This document shows positions 13,978 to 36,960 of a stretch of DNA of 64,000 nucleotides, piece by piece. Below the pieces are notes generated by a model. It worked only from the letters and a program-made list of their open reading frames with translations. It was not told the origin of the DNA and made no database searches. Position numbers and translations under genes: made by a program. Source of the stretch: a virus (taxonomy: Duplodnaviria; Caudoviricetes); IMG/VR virus record IMGVR_UViG_3300021376_000006. One strand, written 5' to 3'. How positions within the stretch are numbered: position 1 is the first letter of the stretch; every line of letters starts with the position of its first letter.

Positions 13978-14060
13978 TGGTGCTGGAGGTGAGACTCGAA
14001 CTCACGGAGGTTTCCCGACGGCTTACAAAACCGTTGCAATTGCCGCTATGCGACTCCAGC
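13978..14060 (-). tRNA. tRNA-Tyr (GTA)
   Basis: Loop TTGTAAG, long variable arm, CCA. Confidence 0.92.
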
Positions 14061-16246: not shown

Positions 16247-17026
16247 ATGCATACGGTCAATCATCAATTGTTTCAAAATTTTGATCATCTAGTAGATATC
16301 AAATCGCTAATAAAACTGAAACCTCTAGTTTCAGCTTTTATTGCCAAAAACTTTCAATACATTATACCAACAAAATTTGCTGCATGGTCATTTCCGCCGT
16401 CGCATCAGCACAAACAAGGTATAGCTGACGCTAACGCCAAATATATTAAAAATCTCAACGGTTTTAGCAGCCATTTGCAAAGTGTAATACAAAATCTAGC
16501 AGATACAGACTGCCTTGGATCTTTTTGCCTATTTGAAGAAGATGTAGTTTTATCTTCATTTAGTTTTAATGTGAGATACAACCTGCAAGGACTGCCTAAT
16601 AAACACCTTGCATCTTGCGTCGCTAAAAGATCGATTGACAGTGACTTTGATTTTTTTTACAACTGGTTAGATAATCAAAACATTTTTCAAGAATACGGTA
16701 GAGTGGTCTTTTTTATCAACTATCCCGGATCAAATCAGGTACCGCATTATGATCCTATTGACGATACACGTGACAATCAACCGGACGAATTTATATTAAT
16801 TAACTTCAATCCCAATCGTAAAAGATTATACTTGTTAGATGACACAAACAATAAAAAATACTATTCATATGGCTATGTAAATTGGTTCAATACTAACAAT
16901 TTCCATGGCGCAGACACTGTAGAATATGCATGTTACACGCTACGAATTGATGGCACTTTTTCCGATCAATTCAGACAAAAGTTTATGGCGGTCCCAAGGG
17001 GTAACGATCCCCTTCTTCAAGCGTGA
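16247..17026 (+). CDS. 2OG-Fe(II)/cupin-type oxygenase (Asp/Asn hydroxylase-like)
   Basis: HxD (PHYD), distal H (NFHGA), YTLRIDG; TATAAATA at 16220-16227. Confidence 0.6.
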   Translation: MHTVNHQLFQNFDHLVDIKSLIKLKPLVSAFIAKNFQYIIPTKFAAWSFPPSHQHKQGIADANAKYIKNLNGFSSHLQSVIQNLADTDCLGSFCLFEEDVVLSSFSFNVRYNLQGLPNKHLASCVAKRSIDSDFDFFYNWLDNQNIFQEYGRVVFFINYPGSNQVPHYDPIDDTRDNQPDEFILINFNPNRKRLYLLDDTNNKKYYSYGYVNWFNTNNFHGADTVEYACYTLRIDGTFSDQFRQKFMAVPRGNDPLLQA

Positions 17027-17060
17027 CAGGCTTGTGTGCGTCCATGAACACTTTGAGACC
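16986..17060 (-). tRNA. tRNA-Asp (GTC)
   Basis: Loop CTGTCAC, variant T-loop ATCGTTA, CCA. Confidence 0.9.
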
Positions 17061-17520: not shown

Positions 17521-18390
17521 CTATAATTTACCTAAATTCACATTTGCAAAATCAAATGTGACTCTGTTCAATACTCGTTTGTTCATGCCTTCAAATTTCC
17601 AACGTTTATGAATACCCAACCACTGTTCGGCAATGACCACATCACCATCTTGCCAGTCGTGATGGTATATATATTTTTCTTGCAACACATGATCTCTTAG
17701 CGATTCTACAAGCTCACGACTTTGATCTTGTGTCATGCCAACAAAATTTCTAAATTGTAAAAAAGGAAAAAATAGTCCAGTTTGTTTACCTATATTGGTG
17801 TAGACCAGGTTAGGAGTGTAATGTTCATTAAAGTTTTCAGTAACCCCTGCTGCTTTACCAAAATCAAAATCACTGTAAGTGCCTTTTTTCCACCCACATA
17901 CCATCTTTAAATCTTTAATTTTATCAATCATTTGGTCATTAAGATCTTTGTAGGCCAAAATATTATTGGTCCAGCTGGTTCTTGAGCCGAACGTGGACTT
18001 GATACCACGCAACCATACCAATGGTTTACGATCGGGTTGAGCGGGTTGATTACAATGCCAGTCTAAATCGTCTACGTGTCCAAACAGTCCCGGTTCGCCA
18101 TGTTCATCAAGCTCACCTGTAACTCTTACCACTTTATAGTTAGTATCTTGAATAATTACATTTTTAAAAGGCGCTATGTCCTTAAGCGGAGTGAGGTCTT
18201 CTAACTCACCAAATCTACTGCATATATTTGCTTCATCTTGCGCTGTAAGATGATTTTGATTTTTGCATACCACTAAGGTATTTGTTGCCAACCAACGGGC
18301 AATTTGATTAATATCCGAATCTGACGCAGTTAAAAAATCAAAGTCATCTAAAATTACAGTCCATCCATTGTCATGTATTTTGTGTTTCAT
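17521..18390 (-). CDS. TauD/TfdA family dioxygenase-like protein
   Basis: LDWHCN, GSRTSW, HDWQDGDVVI, IHKR, LNRVT. Confidence 0.8.
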   Translation of the reverse strand: MKHKIHDNGWTVILDDFDFLTASDSDINQIARWLATNTLVVCKNQNHLTAQDEANICSRFGELEDLTPLKDIAPFKNVIIQDTNYKVVRVTGELDEHGEPGLFGHVDDLDWHCNQPAQPDRKPLVWLRGIKSTFGSRTSWTNNILAYKDLNDQMIDKIKDLKMVCGWKKGTYSDFDFGKAAGVTENFNEHYTPNLVYTNIGKQTGLFFPFLQFRNFVGMTQDQSRELVESLRDHVLQEKYIYHHDWQDGDVVIAEQWLGIHKRWKFEGMNKRVLNRVTFDFANVNLGKL

Positions 18391-18403
18391 AGTTTATCCA
18401 TAA

Positions 18404-18490
18404 TGGTGGGTGCTGATGGTAACGCTCCACGTGCCTTGACTTCCGTACCTTTAGCAATGGTTTTACAGACCACCGTACGGGGCAACACCC
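18404..18490 (-). tRNA. Atypical tRNA-like RNA, anticodon GTA, 8-bp acceptor, reduced D-arm
   Basis: GGGTGTTG/CAGCACCC-A-CCA; loop CTGTAAA; T-arm GTGG-AGCGTTA-CCAT. Confidence 0.65.
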
Positions 18491-18499
18491 ATTTAACAT

Positions 18500-18575
18500 T
18501 GGTGGAGATGACAGGACTCGAACCCGCTACCTATTGCTTGCAAAGCAACCGCTCTCCCAGCTGAGCTACATCCCC
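18500..18575 (-). tRNA. tRNA-Ala (TGC)
   Basis: GGGGATG acceptor with G3:U70, loop TTTGCAA, CCA. Confidence 0.95.
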
Positions 18576-20083
18576 AATATATATTTTCTACATTCTTCAA
18601 GTTCGGGTATATAATCACCCAACTTGCTGTTTCTTGCATGATCTAAAGCATCATTATACAAGAAAAAGTTTTTAAGTGCAACCAAATCGCACTCGGGTTT
18701 TTTGCTGTAATAATCGTATAATGAATCTATGGCTGTCTTATTTGATTTGCCATCTGTGTAATACGTTTTGGTTTGTTGACACTTGTTCATAGATTCAACT
18801 ACCATGTCATGATTGGGATGATTATACGCAGACTGAAAACCCACATGATTGATTTGCAAATAAATTCCAGCATGTGGAAATTCTTGGTCCAAGAATTCAA
18901 ATAACAAATGCAAATTTGTCACATTGTATATTCCTGGAACACAATTAATAGAAATAGTATGTCCATGTGATTCCAACAATTTGGTATTAGCAATCACAGT
19001 ATCCCAATCAGTACCCCAACGCCAATAATCATTGACTTGACCGTAGCCATCTAAACTGACACTGAAATTTAAATTTGTAAAGTGATTGGCCAAGGTCAAA
19101 AACTTTTTAGAAATTTTCACTGCATTTGTGCCCAAAGTAAAATCAAAATCAGTTTTACCTGCGTCAATACATTTCTGCATAAATTCATACACTTCGGGTA
19201 TTACAGTAGGTTCGCCTCCAGTAAGATATACTCTAACTTTTGGATTTAGAGTTTCTATGTCAATTCTGTCTAATTTGGAATACTTAAAGGTTTGCTCGCC
19301 TGGAAAAACTATATTAAATTTTTTAAATTCTCTATCAATCAAATGACTGTGTTCAGGTCTGCAACCGCGGCACATGATGTTACACTTGTTGCTCAATCTA
19401 ATTTCATAATAATACGGCTGTGTAATCTTCTCTAAATCTTCATAGGAATTTATATCCAGTTTTGCCAACCATTCTTTGGTTTCAAACTGCCTATAGCTTT
19501 CAATATTTTTGTCTTCGTAATAATAACAAGTCTCACAATTACTTTCTAATCTTTCTCCGCGAAGCATCTTTTCGCGCACTGCGACAAAATTAGGATCAGA
19601 TTTCCAATCAGTAAATTTGTCCCATGTGGTTACATGATCTCGCCCTCTTGAGCAGGTCAACATATAACCACTCTCTTCGGTAATTGCTATCCAAGGATAG
19701 ATACAAAAACTTTTGTTGTTTTCTATGCTGTTGAAAAATTCTAAAAAGTTTTTGACATTTTTGTTATTTCTAAAACTGGTATTATGACCCAATTTTTCTA
19801 ATTCCAACATAACCTTGTATGAAGATAGCAGCGGCTTCCAATGTGGCCATTGTTGTTTGGGTTGATCTAACAACACAATCAAATCAAATTGTTTTGCAAC
19901 GCTGACGATTTGTCCAAAAGACAAATCTAAAATACTGGTATGATAATACCCAGGTTCGGTTATTAAATCGTCGCTGGCGATCAGCCCGTTGTTTATACAC
20001 TTGTTTTGTTTGGCTAGAATTGTAGTTTTTTTATCTGTGTCATCAGAGTTAGTTCCGATGCACAATATTTTTTGATCAAACAT
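18566..20083 (-). CDS. Radical SAM protein with SPASM/twitch-like Cys cluster
   Basis: CNIMCRGC (CxxxCxxC), YLTGGEP, SVSLDG; upstream FCIYPW...C...CxxC. Confidence 0.88.
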   Translation of the reverse strand: MFDQKILCIGTNSDDTDKKTTILAKQNKCINNGLIASDDLITEPGYYHTSILDLSFGQIVSVAKQFDLIVLLDQPKQQWPHWKPLLSSYKVMLELEKLGHNTSFRNNKNVKNFLEFFNSIENNKSFCIYPWIAITEESGYMLTCSRGRDHVTTWDKFTDWKSDPNFVAVREKMLRGERLESNCETCYYYEDKNIESYRQFETKEWLAKLDINSYEDLEKITQPYYYEIRLSNKCNIMCRGCRPEHSHLIDREFKKFNIVFPGEQTFKYSKLDRIDIETLNPKVRVYLTGGEPTVIPEVYEFMQKCIDAGKTDFDFTLGTNAVKISKKFLTLANHFTNLNFSVSLDGYGQVNDYWRWGTDWDTVIANTKLLESHGHTISINCVPGIYNVTNLHLLFEFLDQEFPHAGIYLQINHVGFQSAYNHPNHDMVVESMNKCQQTKTYYTDGKSNKTAIDSLYDYYSKKPECDLVALKNFFLYNDALDHARNSKLGDYIPELEECRKYILGM

Positions 20084-21949: not shown

Positions 21950-22023
21950 TGATACCCGGAGGTGGGAACGATCCACTGTCGGTCGATTATCAATCGACTG
22001 CTCTACCACTGAGATATCCGGGT
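21950..22023 (-). tRNA. tRNA-Ile (GAT), encoded 3' end TCA
   Basis: Loop TTGATAA, variant T-loop ATCGTTC. Confidence 0.85.
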
Positions 22024-22033
22024 ATACAAACTT

Positions 22034-29602: not shown

Positions 29603-29678
29603 TTGTGCGCTAGACAGGAATTGAACCTGTTATTTTGAGCTTTAGAGACTCCGGCTCAACCATTTAGTTTCTAGCGGC
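29603..29678 (-). tRNA. Degenerate tRNA-like gene with amber anticodon CTA
   Basis: 76 nt; loop CTCTAAA; T-arm ACAGG-TTCAATT-CCTGT; bulged acceptor, weak D-stem, 3' end CAA not CCA. Confidence 0.6.
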
Positions 29679-36407: not shown

Positions 36408-36454
36408 GTGTTTAATCCAATAATGATTATCACAGTATTTAGTTCAATTTTGAC

Positions 36455-36830
36455 ATCCAGCCACTTCTGTTACCGAGCAGGCTGGGTCCATCTCTGAGTC
36501 TTAGTTTAGCTTAGGCAGCTAAACGAACCTCAAACAGCTCATCATTGGCTGCATTTATGGTTTTGCTTCTTTTACGGAGATCGCCTACCGTGTTGTCCAT
36601 ATCCTTACTTATTGCCCTGTCGAAACCAAATTCAGGCCCATCAAAAAGCATTTTCAAGGTGTCCCTCTCCGATACAACGAGGAATCGCTAACCTTGTCTG
36701 CCTTCCCCACTCTTATCAGCTTCCTCATACTTACCGTGGTGGGTCGTTATATCATCGGGCAAAATGCTTTTTGGTGGACCTGCCCGGGGTCGAACCGGGG
36801 TCCAGAACACCTTTCATTCAACTTCATACA
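36455..36830 (-). ncRNA. ssrA: Circularly permuted (two-piece) tmRNA
   Basis: Acceptor piece ...GGTTCGACCCCGGGCAGGTCCACCA (CCA 36772-36774) precedes coding piece GGGCCTG..GGTTTCGAC (from 36639); tag AANDELFEVRLAA* at 36552-36511; outer ends approximate. Confidence 0.9.
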
Positions 36831-36960
36831 ACAATTTTAATCTTTATTTTCTTTGACCCATTTGTAATAGATCAGTACGCATGCTAGTGTTATGGAACCT
36901 ATTAATAATACGCCCAATAAAAAACCAACTATAAAGTAAAGCTGCTCGGTTCCAATTTAC

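Follow-up and report, generated by a model that had tools for sequence, protein, structure and literature searches.

An 87-nt element in a phage tRNA array raises the question of whether an RNA with the anticodon GUA and no D hairpin is a functional tyrosine tRNA, a tRNA of another identity, or an RNA with a task outside translation. The window, i.e., the whole stretch of viral DNA that was analyzed, is 64,000 nucleotides long (IMG/VR record IMGVR_UViG_3300021376_000006). A first-pass annotation had described the element as a tRNA-like RNA with an 8-bp acceptor stem, a 4-bp T stem, a collapsed D arm, and a D region, CCGUAC, able to pair with GUACGG in the variable region. It had interpreted this RNA as either a mis-charging tRNA or a decoy for defense effectors that cleave tRNA-Tyr. 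The analysis reported here bears out most of the structural description, and leads to a different interpretation, namely that the element is probably a working tRNA-Tyr(GUA) whose core is topologically rewired.

Results

A tRNA-like gene that standard tRNA finders do not report

The element lies within a phage tRNA array, immediately after tRNA-Ala(UGC) (Table 1). On the minus strand between these two genes no promoter-like or terminator-like site was found, and both are probably carried on one transcript. Several canonical features are present: the acceptor and T stems add up to a 12-bp branch (8 + 4), the anticodon loop has 7 nt, C-U-GUA-A-A, with U33 and a purine at position 37, and the 3′ end is an encoded ACCA. 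ARAGORN, which the annotation had proposed as a check, does not call the element at its default setting, at the 80% threshold or in its mitochondrial modes, and when 401 nt were searched with the Rfam tRNA model RF00005, no match appeared even with the threshold relaxed to E ≤ 10. With covariance model R1 the element obtains 110.6 bits. The MFE of the single window sequence is unremarkable (z = −0.14); support for the element thus derives from the comparison of its relatives, and not from thermodynamics. A small ORF on the minus strand at 18371-18499 was considered and rejected, since the length differences among family members are not multiples of three and the relatives do not keep the upstream start.

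Table 1. Window coordinates of the putative tRNA-Tyr(GUA) gene, its upstream neighbor and its predicted parts
Feature	Coordinates	Strand	Remarks
Whole gene: putative rewired tRNA-Tyr(GUA), including encoded discriminator A and CCA	18404..18490	minus	87 nt
tRNA-Ala(UGC), upstream neighbor	18500..18575	minus	9 nt before the element
Acceptor stem 5′ strand, RNA nt 1-8	18483..18490	minus	partner 18408-18415; 8 bp
Linker CC, nt 9-10	18481..18482	minus	UU or UC in the canonical-T-loop subfamily
H1 5′ strand CCGUAC, nt 11-16	18475..18480	minus	partner 18443-18448
Anticodon arm, nt 17-35: 26.44 pair, 5-bp stem, loop CUGUAAA	18456..18474	minus	loop 18462-18468; anticodon GUA 18464-18466
H2 5′ strand, nt 36-38, variable-arm stem	18453..18455	minus	partner 18433-18435
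Linker L2, nt 39-42, A-rich	18449..18452	minus	2-10 nt across the family
H1 3′ strand GUACGG, nt 43-48	18443..18448	minus	within the variable-arm loop
Putative D-loop equivalent, nt 49-55: AAGU, then CAA	18436..18442	minus	
H2 3′ strand, nt 56-58	18433..18435	minus	followed by a 2-nt joiner, 18431-18432
T arm, nt 61-75: 4-bp stem and variant T-loop AGCGUUA	18416..18430	minus	stem 18430-18427 paired with 18419-18416
Acceptor 3′ strand, discriminator A73, encoded CCA	18404..18415	minus	18408-18415, 18407 and 18404-18406, respectively; ACCA is 18407-18404

Relatives of the element

Relatives occur on at least 157 IMG/VR viral contigs and provide 98 distinct sequences in two subfamilies. Of the IMG/VR stretches in this set, 105 are of the window's type and 52 belong to the second subfamily; a model search added one divergent member. 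Every member sits in a phage tRNA cluster, and all those listed end in ACCA except one (L240), in which the last two bases differ (ACAG). Their lengths range from 84 to 91 nt, with differences that are not multiples of three, and their flanks are not conserved, which argues against drifting DNA. ARAGORN makes no call on the window's subfamily; in the second subfamily it makes two 'Tyr' calls that overlap family members, and we rejected both as forced folds that make use of chance upstream pairing.

An exact 32-nt search of IMG/VR gave no match. Neither subfamily matched any of 50,697 GenBank phage records at E ≤ 1e-3, and no cultured carrier is known. Among cellular genomes, covariance model R1 had no match in 151 from the order to which a Rhodocyclales MAG belongs, and a pattern for both subfamilies had none in 401 from the class of this MAG. 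Two neighboring ORFs were uninformative for synteny: no viral relatives of the TauD-like one were found, and the relatives of the radical-SAM one (42% identity) have no tRNAs nearby.

A MAFFT alignment of all members misplaces the variable part, and rule-based parsing and model-based alignments were used instead. The latter are biased towards the structure used to build them, for which slid partners served as controls.

Covariation supports five helices

Comparison of the relatives supports five helices, namely the 8-bp acceptor stem, the 4-bp T stem, the 5-bp anticodon stem extended by the 26.44 pair, a 6-bp helix referred to as H1, and a 3-4-bp helix referred to as H2. In the alignment of the window's type, 98.4% of the cells of the nested helices are paired, compared with 82.1% after shuffling and at most 63.6% with slid partners; the covariation score is 0.427, compared with no more than 0.064 in the controls. 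In the alignment of all 98 sequences, 97.4% of the cells are paired versus 76.6% in shuffles. Sixteen pairs are changed on both sides in each of these two structure-based alignments, and the slid controls over both reach covariation scores of at most 0.089.

The acceptor stem is 99.2% paired among the 98 distinct sequences, with changes on both sides in six of its eight pairs. Its eighth pair is G-C in 97 of the 98, and is supported by conservation rather than covariation, since it never varies. All six pairs of the anticodon arm covary across the 98 sequences; within the window's subfamily, the 26.44 pair switches from G.U to A.C and back. The T stem is 100% paired; a G.U pair becomes G-C in eight sequences, and one member (L170) has a compensatory change from G-C to A-U, while two pairs are invariant, and these covariation cannot prove. 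An ordinary 7/5 fold in homologs, which the annotation had named as a finding that would speak against it, was rejected: a fifth T pair is impossible across the relatives, the base 5′ of the stem being mostly C or A and the opposite base an invariant C.

For H1, all six pairs between CCGUAC and GUACGG are kept in 55 of 55 distinct relatives in the window's subfamily, with 21 different strand sequences; the pairing that the annotation had noticed thus goes far beyond chance. The same six pairs form in 37 of 42 sequences of the second subfamily, and on the model-based alignment H1 is 100% paired, with changes on both sides in five of six pairs. H2, a further helix that the annotation had not described, has at least 3 bp in all 97 sequences of the two subfamilies (55/55 and 42/42), with about 12 and 18 strand variants, respectively, compared with 31% when strands are given wrong partners, and all three of its modeled pairs show changes on both sides (98 sequences). 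In the window, the pairing register of H2 is one base off from that in its closest relatives.

RNAalifold, applied to an ungapped alignment, independently recovers the acceptor, H1 and anticodon helices. It also offers an alternative pairing of the 3′ third, which rests solely on invariant columns in one subgroup. We prefer the T arm, on the grounds that an ordinary T arm occupies this region in the second subfamily and that the stem shows one-sided and compensatory changes. The unremarkable MFE and the silence of the tRNA finders might suggest either a chance fold or a tRNA pseudogene in decay, but this explanation is refuted by the conservation of 98 distinct sequences, with compensatory changes seen across the five helices, and we consider its probability practically nil.

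A predicted pseudoknot takes the place of the D arm

Only 8 nt separate the 8-bp acceptor stem from position 26, i.e., the 2-nt linker and the H1 5′ strand, and there is no closed D hairpin; six of these nucleotides pair with the variable region. The annotation was right in regarding the D arm as collapsed. The H1 5′ strand is continuous with position 26 and the anticodon stem, and thus stands where the 3′ strand of the D stem is found in a normal tRNA, while the H1 3′ strand occupies the place of the D-stem 5′ strand. Along the RNA, the strands follow one another in the order H1-5′, H2-5′, H1-3′, H2-3′, and are thus interleaved. The core is therefore predicted to be a pseudoknot, in which H1 and H2, each separately supported by the alignments, cross.

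The bases that follow the H1 3′ strand are also constrained. In the window's subfamily they are AAGU in 55 of 57 sequences, with one UAGU and, in member L151, UGGC; the T-loop of all these sequences is AGCGUUA, except in L151, which has a canonical T-loop. In the second subfamily, NGG directly follows the H1 3′ strand in 40 of 42 parsed sequences, and the T-loop is UUCRANU. The coupling between AAGU and AGCGUUA is also seen in ordinary cloverleaf tRNAs (16/17 versus 18/2033), and holds in a set of 2301 such tRNAs from phages, with several specificities represented (Fisher p = 8e-30). Most of the weight comes from these ordinary tRNAs, as the rewired family itself displays only two states, amounting to about one evolutionary event. 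We read the AAGU of the window as the likely equivalent of positions 18/19, in contact with the T-loop; the best explanation for these patterns is that the bases after the H1 3′ strand would behave as D-loop positions 18 and 19 and dock on the T-loop.

Identity elements point to tyrosine

In bacteria, the tyrosine identity set consists of A73, G1-C72 and G34-U35-A36 (PMC9976931). All of these are found throughout the family: G1-C72 in 98 of 98 distinct sequences, A73 in every member, and the anticodon GUA in every member recovered, which is partly imposed by the search, in that all patterns fixed the anticodon; some members were recovered with patterns or models that left the acceptor or the T-loop free. 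Within the window's subfamily the anticodon loop reads CUGUAAA, with CUGUAAC in L151 alone, and in the other it is either CUGUAAA or CUGUAAC. At the place of the long variable arm there is the covarying 3-4-bp stem H2, with its loop engaged in H1.

The invariance of the identity set in 98 distinct members speaks against the mis-charging tRNA envisaged in the annotation, that is, an adaptor of the allo-tRNA type that would insert serine or another amino acid at tyrosine codons. There are genuine likenesses. Allo-tRNAs, tRNA-Sec and the 8/4 tRNA-Ser and tRNA-His carried by phages share with the element the 8/4 branch, a long D-type stem (6 bp in the element), a four-base D-loop or its equivalent, an anticodon helix lengthened by the 26.44 pair and a long variable region, and they too are found in phage tRNA clusters (PMC5389517). 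The 6-bp helix and four-base 'D-loop' of the element in fact resemble the D arm of tRNA-Sec and allo-tRNAs with swapped strand connections. However, these RNAs are cloverleaves with a closed D hairpin, whereas the two strands in the element come from separate places. Most allo-tRNAs, moreover, have the G73 or U73 used by SerRS, serine identity, and diverse anticodons that span 35 codons (PMC5389517), whereas the element always has A73 and GUA. The variable arm that SerRS requires is here just 3-4 bp long, with its loop tied up in H1, and misreading of tyrosine codons would be costly in phages without another tRNA-Tyr. Mis-charging is thus very improbable.

The element fills the only gap in the tRNA set

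By ARAGORN, the window encodes tRNAs for 19 amino acids, and tyrosine alone is missing; the same is true of two related element-bearing genomes of 100% CheckV completeness. The annotation had placed a normal tRNA-Tyr at 13978-14060, but ARAGORN identifies this gene as tRNA-Thr(UGU), and the ordinary tRNA-Thr(UGU) genes of relatives share its acceptor type. Of 106 element loci, 2 have a canonical tRNA-Tyr according to ARAGORN, compared with 26 of 56 control loci (p = 1.9e-12). No TyrRS gene (PF00579) was found in five element-bearing contigs, two of them complete. Because the element fills the sole tyrosine gap in a set that otherwise covers 19 of 20 amino acids, we read it as the phage's own tRNA-Tyr, most likely its only one, and not as an additional decoy.

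In the second subfamily, a separate canonical tRNA-Tyr is also present in 10 of 52 loci. The two forms are therefore not full substitutes for each other, and the rewired form may serve a purpose of its own. A recent duplication was rejected as the origin of these co-resident genes, as their stems differ throughout. Such co-occurrence would suit a decoy or sponge that binds or saturates a host nuclease or sensor directed at tRNA-Tyr and is never used by the ribosome, and defense systems that target tRNA-Tyr do exist, with phage tRNA-Tyr being discussed as 'decoy or supplement' (PMC13096335). A decoy, however, would need no 12-bp branch, putative elbow contact, G1-C72, A73, exact 7-nt anticodon loop or encoded CCA, all of which are constrained here; in the window and the two complete genomes the element is the only tRNA with a tyrosine anticodon in an otherwise complete set; and its altered variable arm would make it a poor mimic if nucleases that cut in this arm were the target. 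We consider such a decoy unlikely. Of the annotation's proposal, the extra decoy is thus improbable, while a link with tRNA-Tyr nucleases is plausible in another form, that of an escape variant. It is also improbable that the element is a tRNA-shaped RNA with a non-translational task, such as an element for transcript processing or stability, a primer or a regulator, for which the stable RNAs C and D of phage T4 might be compared; this would leave unexplained both the invariant GUA loop with the tyrosine identity bases and the presence of the element exactly where tyrosine is missing.

Discussion

We propose that the element acts as a tRNA-Tyr in the following manner. It would be transcribed together with the tRNA array, and trimmed by the host RNase P and 3′ nucleases. 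After the acceptor stem, nt 11-16 would join up with the anticodon stem by way of position 26, and would pair, as the 6-bp helix H1, with a strand located in the loop of the long variable arm; with the 3-4 bp of H2 also formed, the two helices would cross in a pseudoknot. The bases after the H1 3′ strand would then serve as D-loop positions 18/19 and dock on the T-loop, such that the elbow of the L shape is kept. The host TyrRS would load the mature RNA with tyrosine, and the charged RNA would decode UAY codons. Because the long variable arm, which bacterial TyrRS recognizes as well, is strongly changed in the element, tyrosylation is not assured.

Why a phage would carry a tRNA-Tyr of this kind may be related to the same arm. 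Septu and the PtuAB of retron-Eco7 cleave tRNA-Tyr in the variable arm, and the tRNA-Tyr of phage T5 is reportedly resistant by virtue of a distinctive variable loop (PMC13096335, PMC11555353). It is possible, though doubtful, that the rewiring was selected for hiding or removing the free variable arm that nucleases of the Septu/retron-Eco7 type cut in tRNA-Tyr. In the wider form of this idea, which we put forward only tentatively, uncultured aquatic phages would have evolved and spread a translation-competent, re-threaded tRNA-Tyr that keeps the L shape and the tyrosine identity while shedding the free class II variable arm recognized and cut by host defense nucleases such as the PtuAB of Septu and retron-Eco7. 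If so, this would be the first tRNA in nature, organelles aside, to have given up the cloverleaf topology, and an instance of counter-defense by structural means. The tRNA-Tyr of T5 and T6, which faces Septu and retron-Eco7 PtuAB, is likewise encoded by phages and contested at the variable arm, but these are ordinary cloverleaves whose effect is due to a changed variable loop or to gene dosage (PMC11555353, PMC13096335).

Should the element be charged and decode UAY, it would mean that a different strand topology can build the L shape and be accepted at every step, by the ribosome as well as by RNase P, TyrRS and EF-Tu. Standard finders would then systematically under-count phage tRNA sets, with the 'missing' tyrosine tRNA merely undetected. 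The element would also provide a natural scaffold for the engineering of orthogonal tRNAs, and a testable case in which the arms race over tRNA-Tyr could have reshaped the body of a tRNA, beyond its loops.

Compared with canonical class II tRNA-Tyr(GUA), the element has the same CUGUAAA loop, G1-C72, A73, 12-bp branch and encoded CCA, and a stem where the long variable arm is expected; in the control loci, the anticodon arm of certain canonical phage tRNA-Tyr genes is even identical to that of the element. It differs in that its D-type helix uses a strand from the loop of the variable arm, in the pseudoknot, in the 8/4 rather than 7/5 division of the branch and, in the window's subfamily, in the T-loop AGCGUUA.

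Reviews of non-canonical tRNAs, which list Sec, Pyl, allo-tRNAs and shrunken mitochondrial tRNAs (PMC7609411, PMC5389517), do not include a re-threaded, pseudoknotted core, and we found no published description of a rewired, knotted tRNA core in the literature. D-armless mitochondrial tRNAs, e.g., nematode mt-tRNA-Ser, similarly lack a D hairpin and link the acceptor and anticodon helices by a short connector, but they are shrunken, have lost the D helix and the elbow contacts, and need adapted EF-Tu and enzymes (PMC7609411), whereas the element keeps a 6-bp D-type helix, a putative 18/19 equivalent and a class II length of 87 nt. The tRNA-like structures of plant RNA viruses (BMV TLS-Tyr and TYMV TLS-Val) are also viral, tRNA-shaped and pseudoknotted, and bear the identity bases for aminoacylation, including A73 and U35 in BMV TLS-Tyr (PMC9976931). 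These, however, are untranslating 3′ ends of genomic RNAs, with the pseudoknot in the acceptor branch and the eukaryotic identity pair C1-G72 (PMC9976931), whereas the element is a free-standing gene in a tRNA array with its predicted pseudoknot in the core. Permuted and split tRNA genes of algae and archaea likewise have a rearranged order of tRNA segments; in these, only the gene is rearranged, and processing yields a canonical tRNA (PMC4033280), whereas the element shows no sign of being processed in this way, and its rearranged order is itself base-paired and conserved.

A tRNA gene missed by tRNA finders

The rewired tRNA gene starts 9 nt past a tRNA-Ala(UGC) gene, and a TauD-like open reading frame begins 13 nt beyond it (see table). 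All of the pairings that the first-pass annotation had listed for this element were found in the sequence. The element is not among the 26 tRNAs and one permuted tmRNA that ARAGORN called across the window; the check proposed in that annotation returned no call at default settings, at a reduced threshold or in the mitochondrial modes. Nor did the Rfam tRNA model report the element, even at E ≤ 10, and the energy of its single-sequence fold is about that of shuffled sequences (z = -0.14).

The first-pass annotation had also assigned a normal tRNA-Tyr to the window, at a site where ARAGORN calls a tRNA-Thr with loop UUUGUAA and anticodon UGU; the ordinary Thr(UGU) genes of relatives (74-76 nt, the length found in most of them) share its acceptor-stem type. 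The window's tRNAs thus cover 19 amino acids, with no canonical tRNA-Tyr among them. The tRNA-Thr is itself class II-like, which is unusual for Thr, and long-armed forms also occur in two other IMG/VR loci, L055 (83 nt) and L027 (87 nt).

Positions of the rewired tRNA gene and other features of the window
Feature	Position	Strand	Description
Rewired tRNA gene	18490..18404	minus	87 nt; 3' end ACCA
tRNA-Ala(UGC)	18500-18575
tRNA-Thr(UGU)	13978-14060	minus	83 nt; 13-nt variable arm
tRNA-Asp	16986-17060		T-loop AUCGUUA
tRNA-Ile	21951-22024		T-loop AUCGUUC
tRNA, anticodon CUA	29606-29677	minus	called by Rfam alone, 38 bits
TauD/TfdA-family dioxygenase ORF	17521-18390	minus	289 aa; wedged amid tRNA genes
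Radical-SAM ORF	18566-20083	minus	505 aa; wedged amid tRNA genes
tmRNA	36420-36864	minus	phage-encoded, permuted two-piece type; tag peptide AANDELFEVRLAA

A phage family with a single layout

An IMG/VR pattern in which only the acceptor strands, anticodon loop and 3' end were fixed matched 10 loci, every one in a tRNA cluster. A second pattern, fixing the anticodon loop and T arm, matched 105 stretches with 55 distinct sequences. A covariance model built on 15 members of equal length recovered two divergent members among unrelated control loci; one of these, L151, has a canonical T-loop, and a pattern based on it yielded a second subfamily of 52 stretches (42 distinct sequences). In total, the family comprises 98 distinct sequences on at least 157 contigs. 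As far as searched it is phage-specific, with no member in the 151 and 401 bacterial genomes sampled; none was found in the GenBank phages searched.

When parsed by rule, all members fit one layout. An 8-nt acceptor 5' strand is followed by a 2-nt linker, the 6-nt 5' strand of a helix denoted H1, position 26, a 5-bp anticodon stem whose loop is CUGUAAA or CUGUAAC, and position 44. Next come the 5' strand of the variable-arm stem, H2 (3-4 nt), an A-rich linker of 2-10 nt and the 6-nt H1 3' strand. These are followed by 3-7 nt beginning AAGU or NGG, the H2 3' strand, a spacer of 2-3 nt, the T arm (4-bp stem, 7-nt loop), the 8-nt acceptor 3' strand and ACCA. Because the H2 5' strand lies between the H1 strands and its 3' strand after both, H1 and H2 cross, i.e., they form a pseudoknot.

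Covariation supports both crossing helices

For the window's subfamily, 98.4% of the cells in a model-based alignment are paired, against 82.1% after shuffling; both-side changes occur in 16 of 24 pairs. The covariation score is 0.427, and sliding the partners by 1-3 columns brings it to at most 0.064. In this alignment, pairing of H1 is complete (100%), with both-side changes in five of its six pairs. All six pairs form in 55/55 sequences of this subfamily (21 strand variants) and in 37/42 of the second (18 variants), the remaining five having 5/6. RNAalifold, given an ungapped alignment fitted to no model, predicted the 8-bp acceptor, H1 and the anticodon helix unaided.

H2 was assessed with a separate covariance model, in which it was set as a nested helix; across the 98 sequences, all three modelled pairs show both-side changes. 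By rule-based parsing, at least 3 bp form in 55/55 and 42/42 sequences, whereas only 31% reach this number when a strand meets the partner from a sequence of another H2 type. The window's own H2 is one base off the register of its nearest relatives and keeps three pairs. At 26.44, members of the window's subfamily have either G.U or A.C, and those of the second mostly have a Watson-Crick pair.

The 8/4 split of the acceptor and T stems, proposed in the first-pass annotation, holds throughout the family. The eighth acceptor pair is G-C in 97/98 sequences; since it never varies, this pair is supported by conservation alone. Four pairs make up the T stem; the changes seen there are G.U to G-C and, once, a compensatory G-C to A-U. 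An ordinary 7/5 fold is ruled out, and is absent in homologs: no fifth T pair can form, since an invariant C would face the base preceding the T stem, which is usually C or A. The element's branch totals 12 bp, the length found in all cytosolic tRNAs (PMC5389517).

The elbow and the proposed geometry

The bases after the H1 3' strand change together with the T-loop. In the window's subfamily they are AAGU in 55/57 sequences (UAGU in one), and the T-loop is AGCGUUA in 56/57. In the second, the T-loop is UUCRANU and U/C/A-GG directly follows the H1 3' strand in 40 of the 42 parsed sequences, with GG one base further on in the other two. The linker shifts as well, from CC in the window's subfamily to UU or UC in the second.

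Because two states alone could reflect a single historical event, we examined the ordinary cloverleaf tRNAs of the same loci (2301 distinct ARAGORN calls). Among those with T-loop AGCGUUA (Ile, Met, Thr, His, Phe), the D-loop GG is absent in 16/17, replaced by AAAAGUA, AAGU or GGAAGUC, as opposed to 18/2033 with UUCRANN (Fisher p = 8e-30). T-loops that retain U55 (AUCGUUA or AUCGUUC) keep GG in 66/66. These sequence patterns suggest that the bases after the H1 3' strand behave as D-loop positions 18/19, and they would be as expected for a swap of G18.psi55 for A18.G55 with G19-C56 kept.

The cloverleaf tRNAs with AGCGUUA and no D-loop GG (L092:4014-4087, L130:12658-12732, L141:3368-3441, L160:8105-8178, L171:5008-5081 and others) look like products of this elbow swap, of which we found no account. 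Among the CAU-anticodon tRNAs of loci L120-L177 (e.g. L120:8160-8236, L122:659-730), many combine a mismatch at 1.72 with an AAGU tetraloop on a 4-bp D stem and T-loop AGCGUUA; ARAGORN calls only some of them. The window's tRNA-Asp and tRNA-Ile keep the D-loop GG and have A54 and U58, the opposite of the usual T54.A58.

We place the H1 5' strand where the D-stem 3' strand normally lies, because it runs directly into position 26. By known tRNA geometry, the H1 3' strand and the 18/19 equivalent would then occupy the place of the D-stem 5' strand and D-loop, and the six H1 pairs would stand as high as a 4-bp D stem together with the 8.14 and 15.48 layers. H1 matches the 6-bp stem with tetraloop of tRNA-Sec and allo-tRNAs (PMC5389517). 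The three altered connections (from the acceptor to the D-helix top, from the variable-arm loop to the base of that helix, and from the D-loop to the variable arm) would link places that are adjacent in a normal tRNA.

The element departs from the cloverleaf family in two defining respects: it has no closed D hairpin, and tRNA models do not detect it. Like allo-tRNAs and the 8/4 tRNA-Ser and tRNA-His of phages, it has an 8/4 branch and a long D-type helix, but it lacks their closed D hairpin, G73/U73 serine identity and anticodon diversity (PMC5389517). Nor is it of the shrunken, D-armless mitochondrial type (PMC7609411). A full-text literature search gave no description of a tRNA in which the variable-arm loop contributes to the D helix.

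Tyrosine identity and distribution

The bacterial tyrosine determinants G1-C72, A73 and G34-U35-A36 (PMC9976931) are invariant in the family, the anticodon having been fixed by the searches. ARAGORN called 1627 tRNAs in 106 loci of the window's type. A tRNA for Tyr occurs in only 2 of these loci, against 49-85 loci for each of the other 19 amino acids. By comparison, of 56 control loci in which other tRNAs have the odd T-loop and the element is absent, 26 carry a canonical class II tRNA-Tyr (Fisher p = 1.9e-12). Of the contigs with the element, two (364 and 357 kb) are rated 100% complete; their tRNAs cover 19 amino acids, with only Tyr missing. We take the element to be real and strongly conserved, a tRNA-Tyr in a structural variant that is new; the comparisons show its structure and distribution. 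It would serve as the phage's tRNA-Tyr, and in our reading would be charged and would decode like a bacterial class II tRNA-Tyr. Since no class Ic synthetase gene was found in five carrier contigs, charging would fall to the host TyrRS.

A separate canonical tRNA-Tyr also occurs at 10/52 loci of the second subfamily, and thus the rewired form may add something beyond simple replacement. Recent duplication is ruled out as the source of these canonical genes. The two forms adjoin in L236:2809-2988, L237:5989-6165 and L232:2719-2966, with stems that differ throughout.

Septu and retron-Eco7 PtuAB halt phages by cleaving the tRNA-Tyr variable arm; a distinctive variable loop reportedly makes T5 tRNA-Tyr resistant, and amplification of its tRNA-Tyr gene lets T6 escape (PMC13096335, PMC11555353). 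The rewired tRNA has a variable arm of only 3-4 bp, the loop of which is locked in the D-type helix. Escape from variable-arm nucleases would be the most attractive, if still doubtful, motive for the rewiring.

Other features of the tRNA regions

An IMG/VR pattern search gave no relative of the window's TauD/TfdA-family dioxygenase. The tRNA called by Rfam alone has an amber-suppressor-like anticodon loop, CUCUAAA, and no encoded CCA. ARAGORN called a 'Pyl(cta)' tRNA in the complete related genome G001, and one tRNA with a four-base anticodon, '(tgat)', in a 357-kb complete relative (L189 / G002:C1:16000-17300 or L188).
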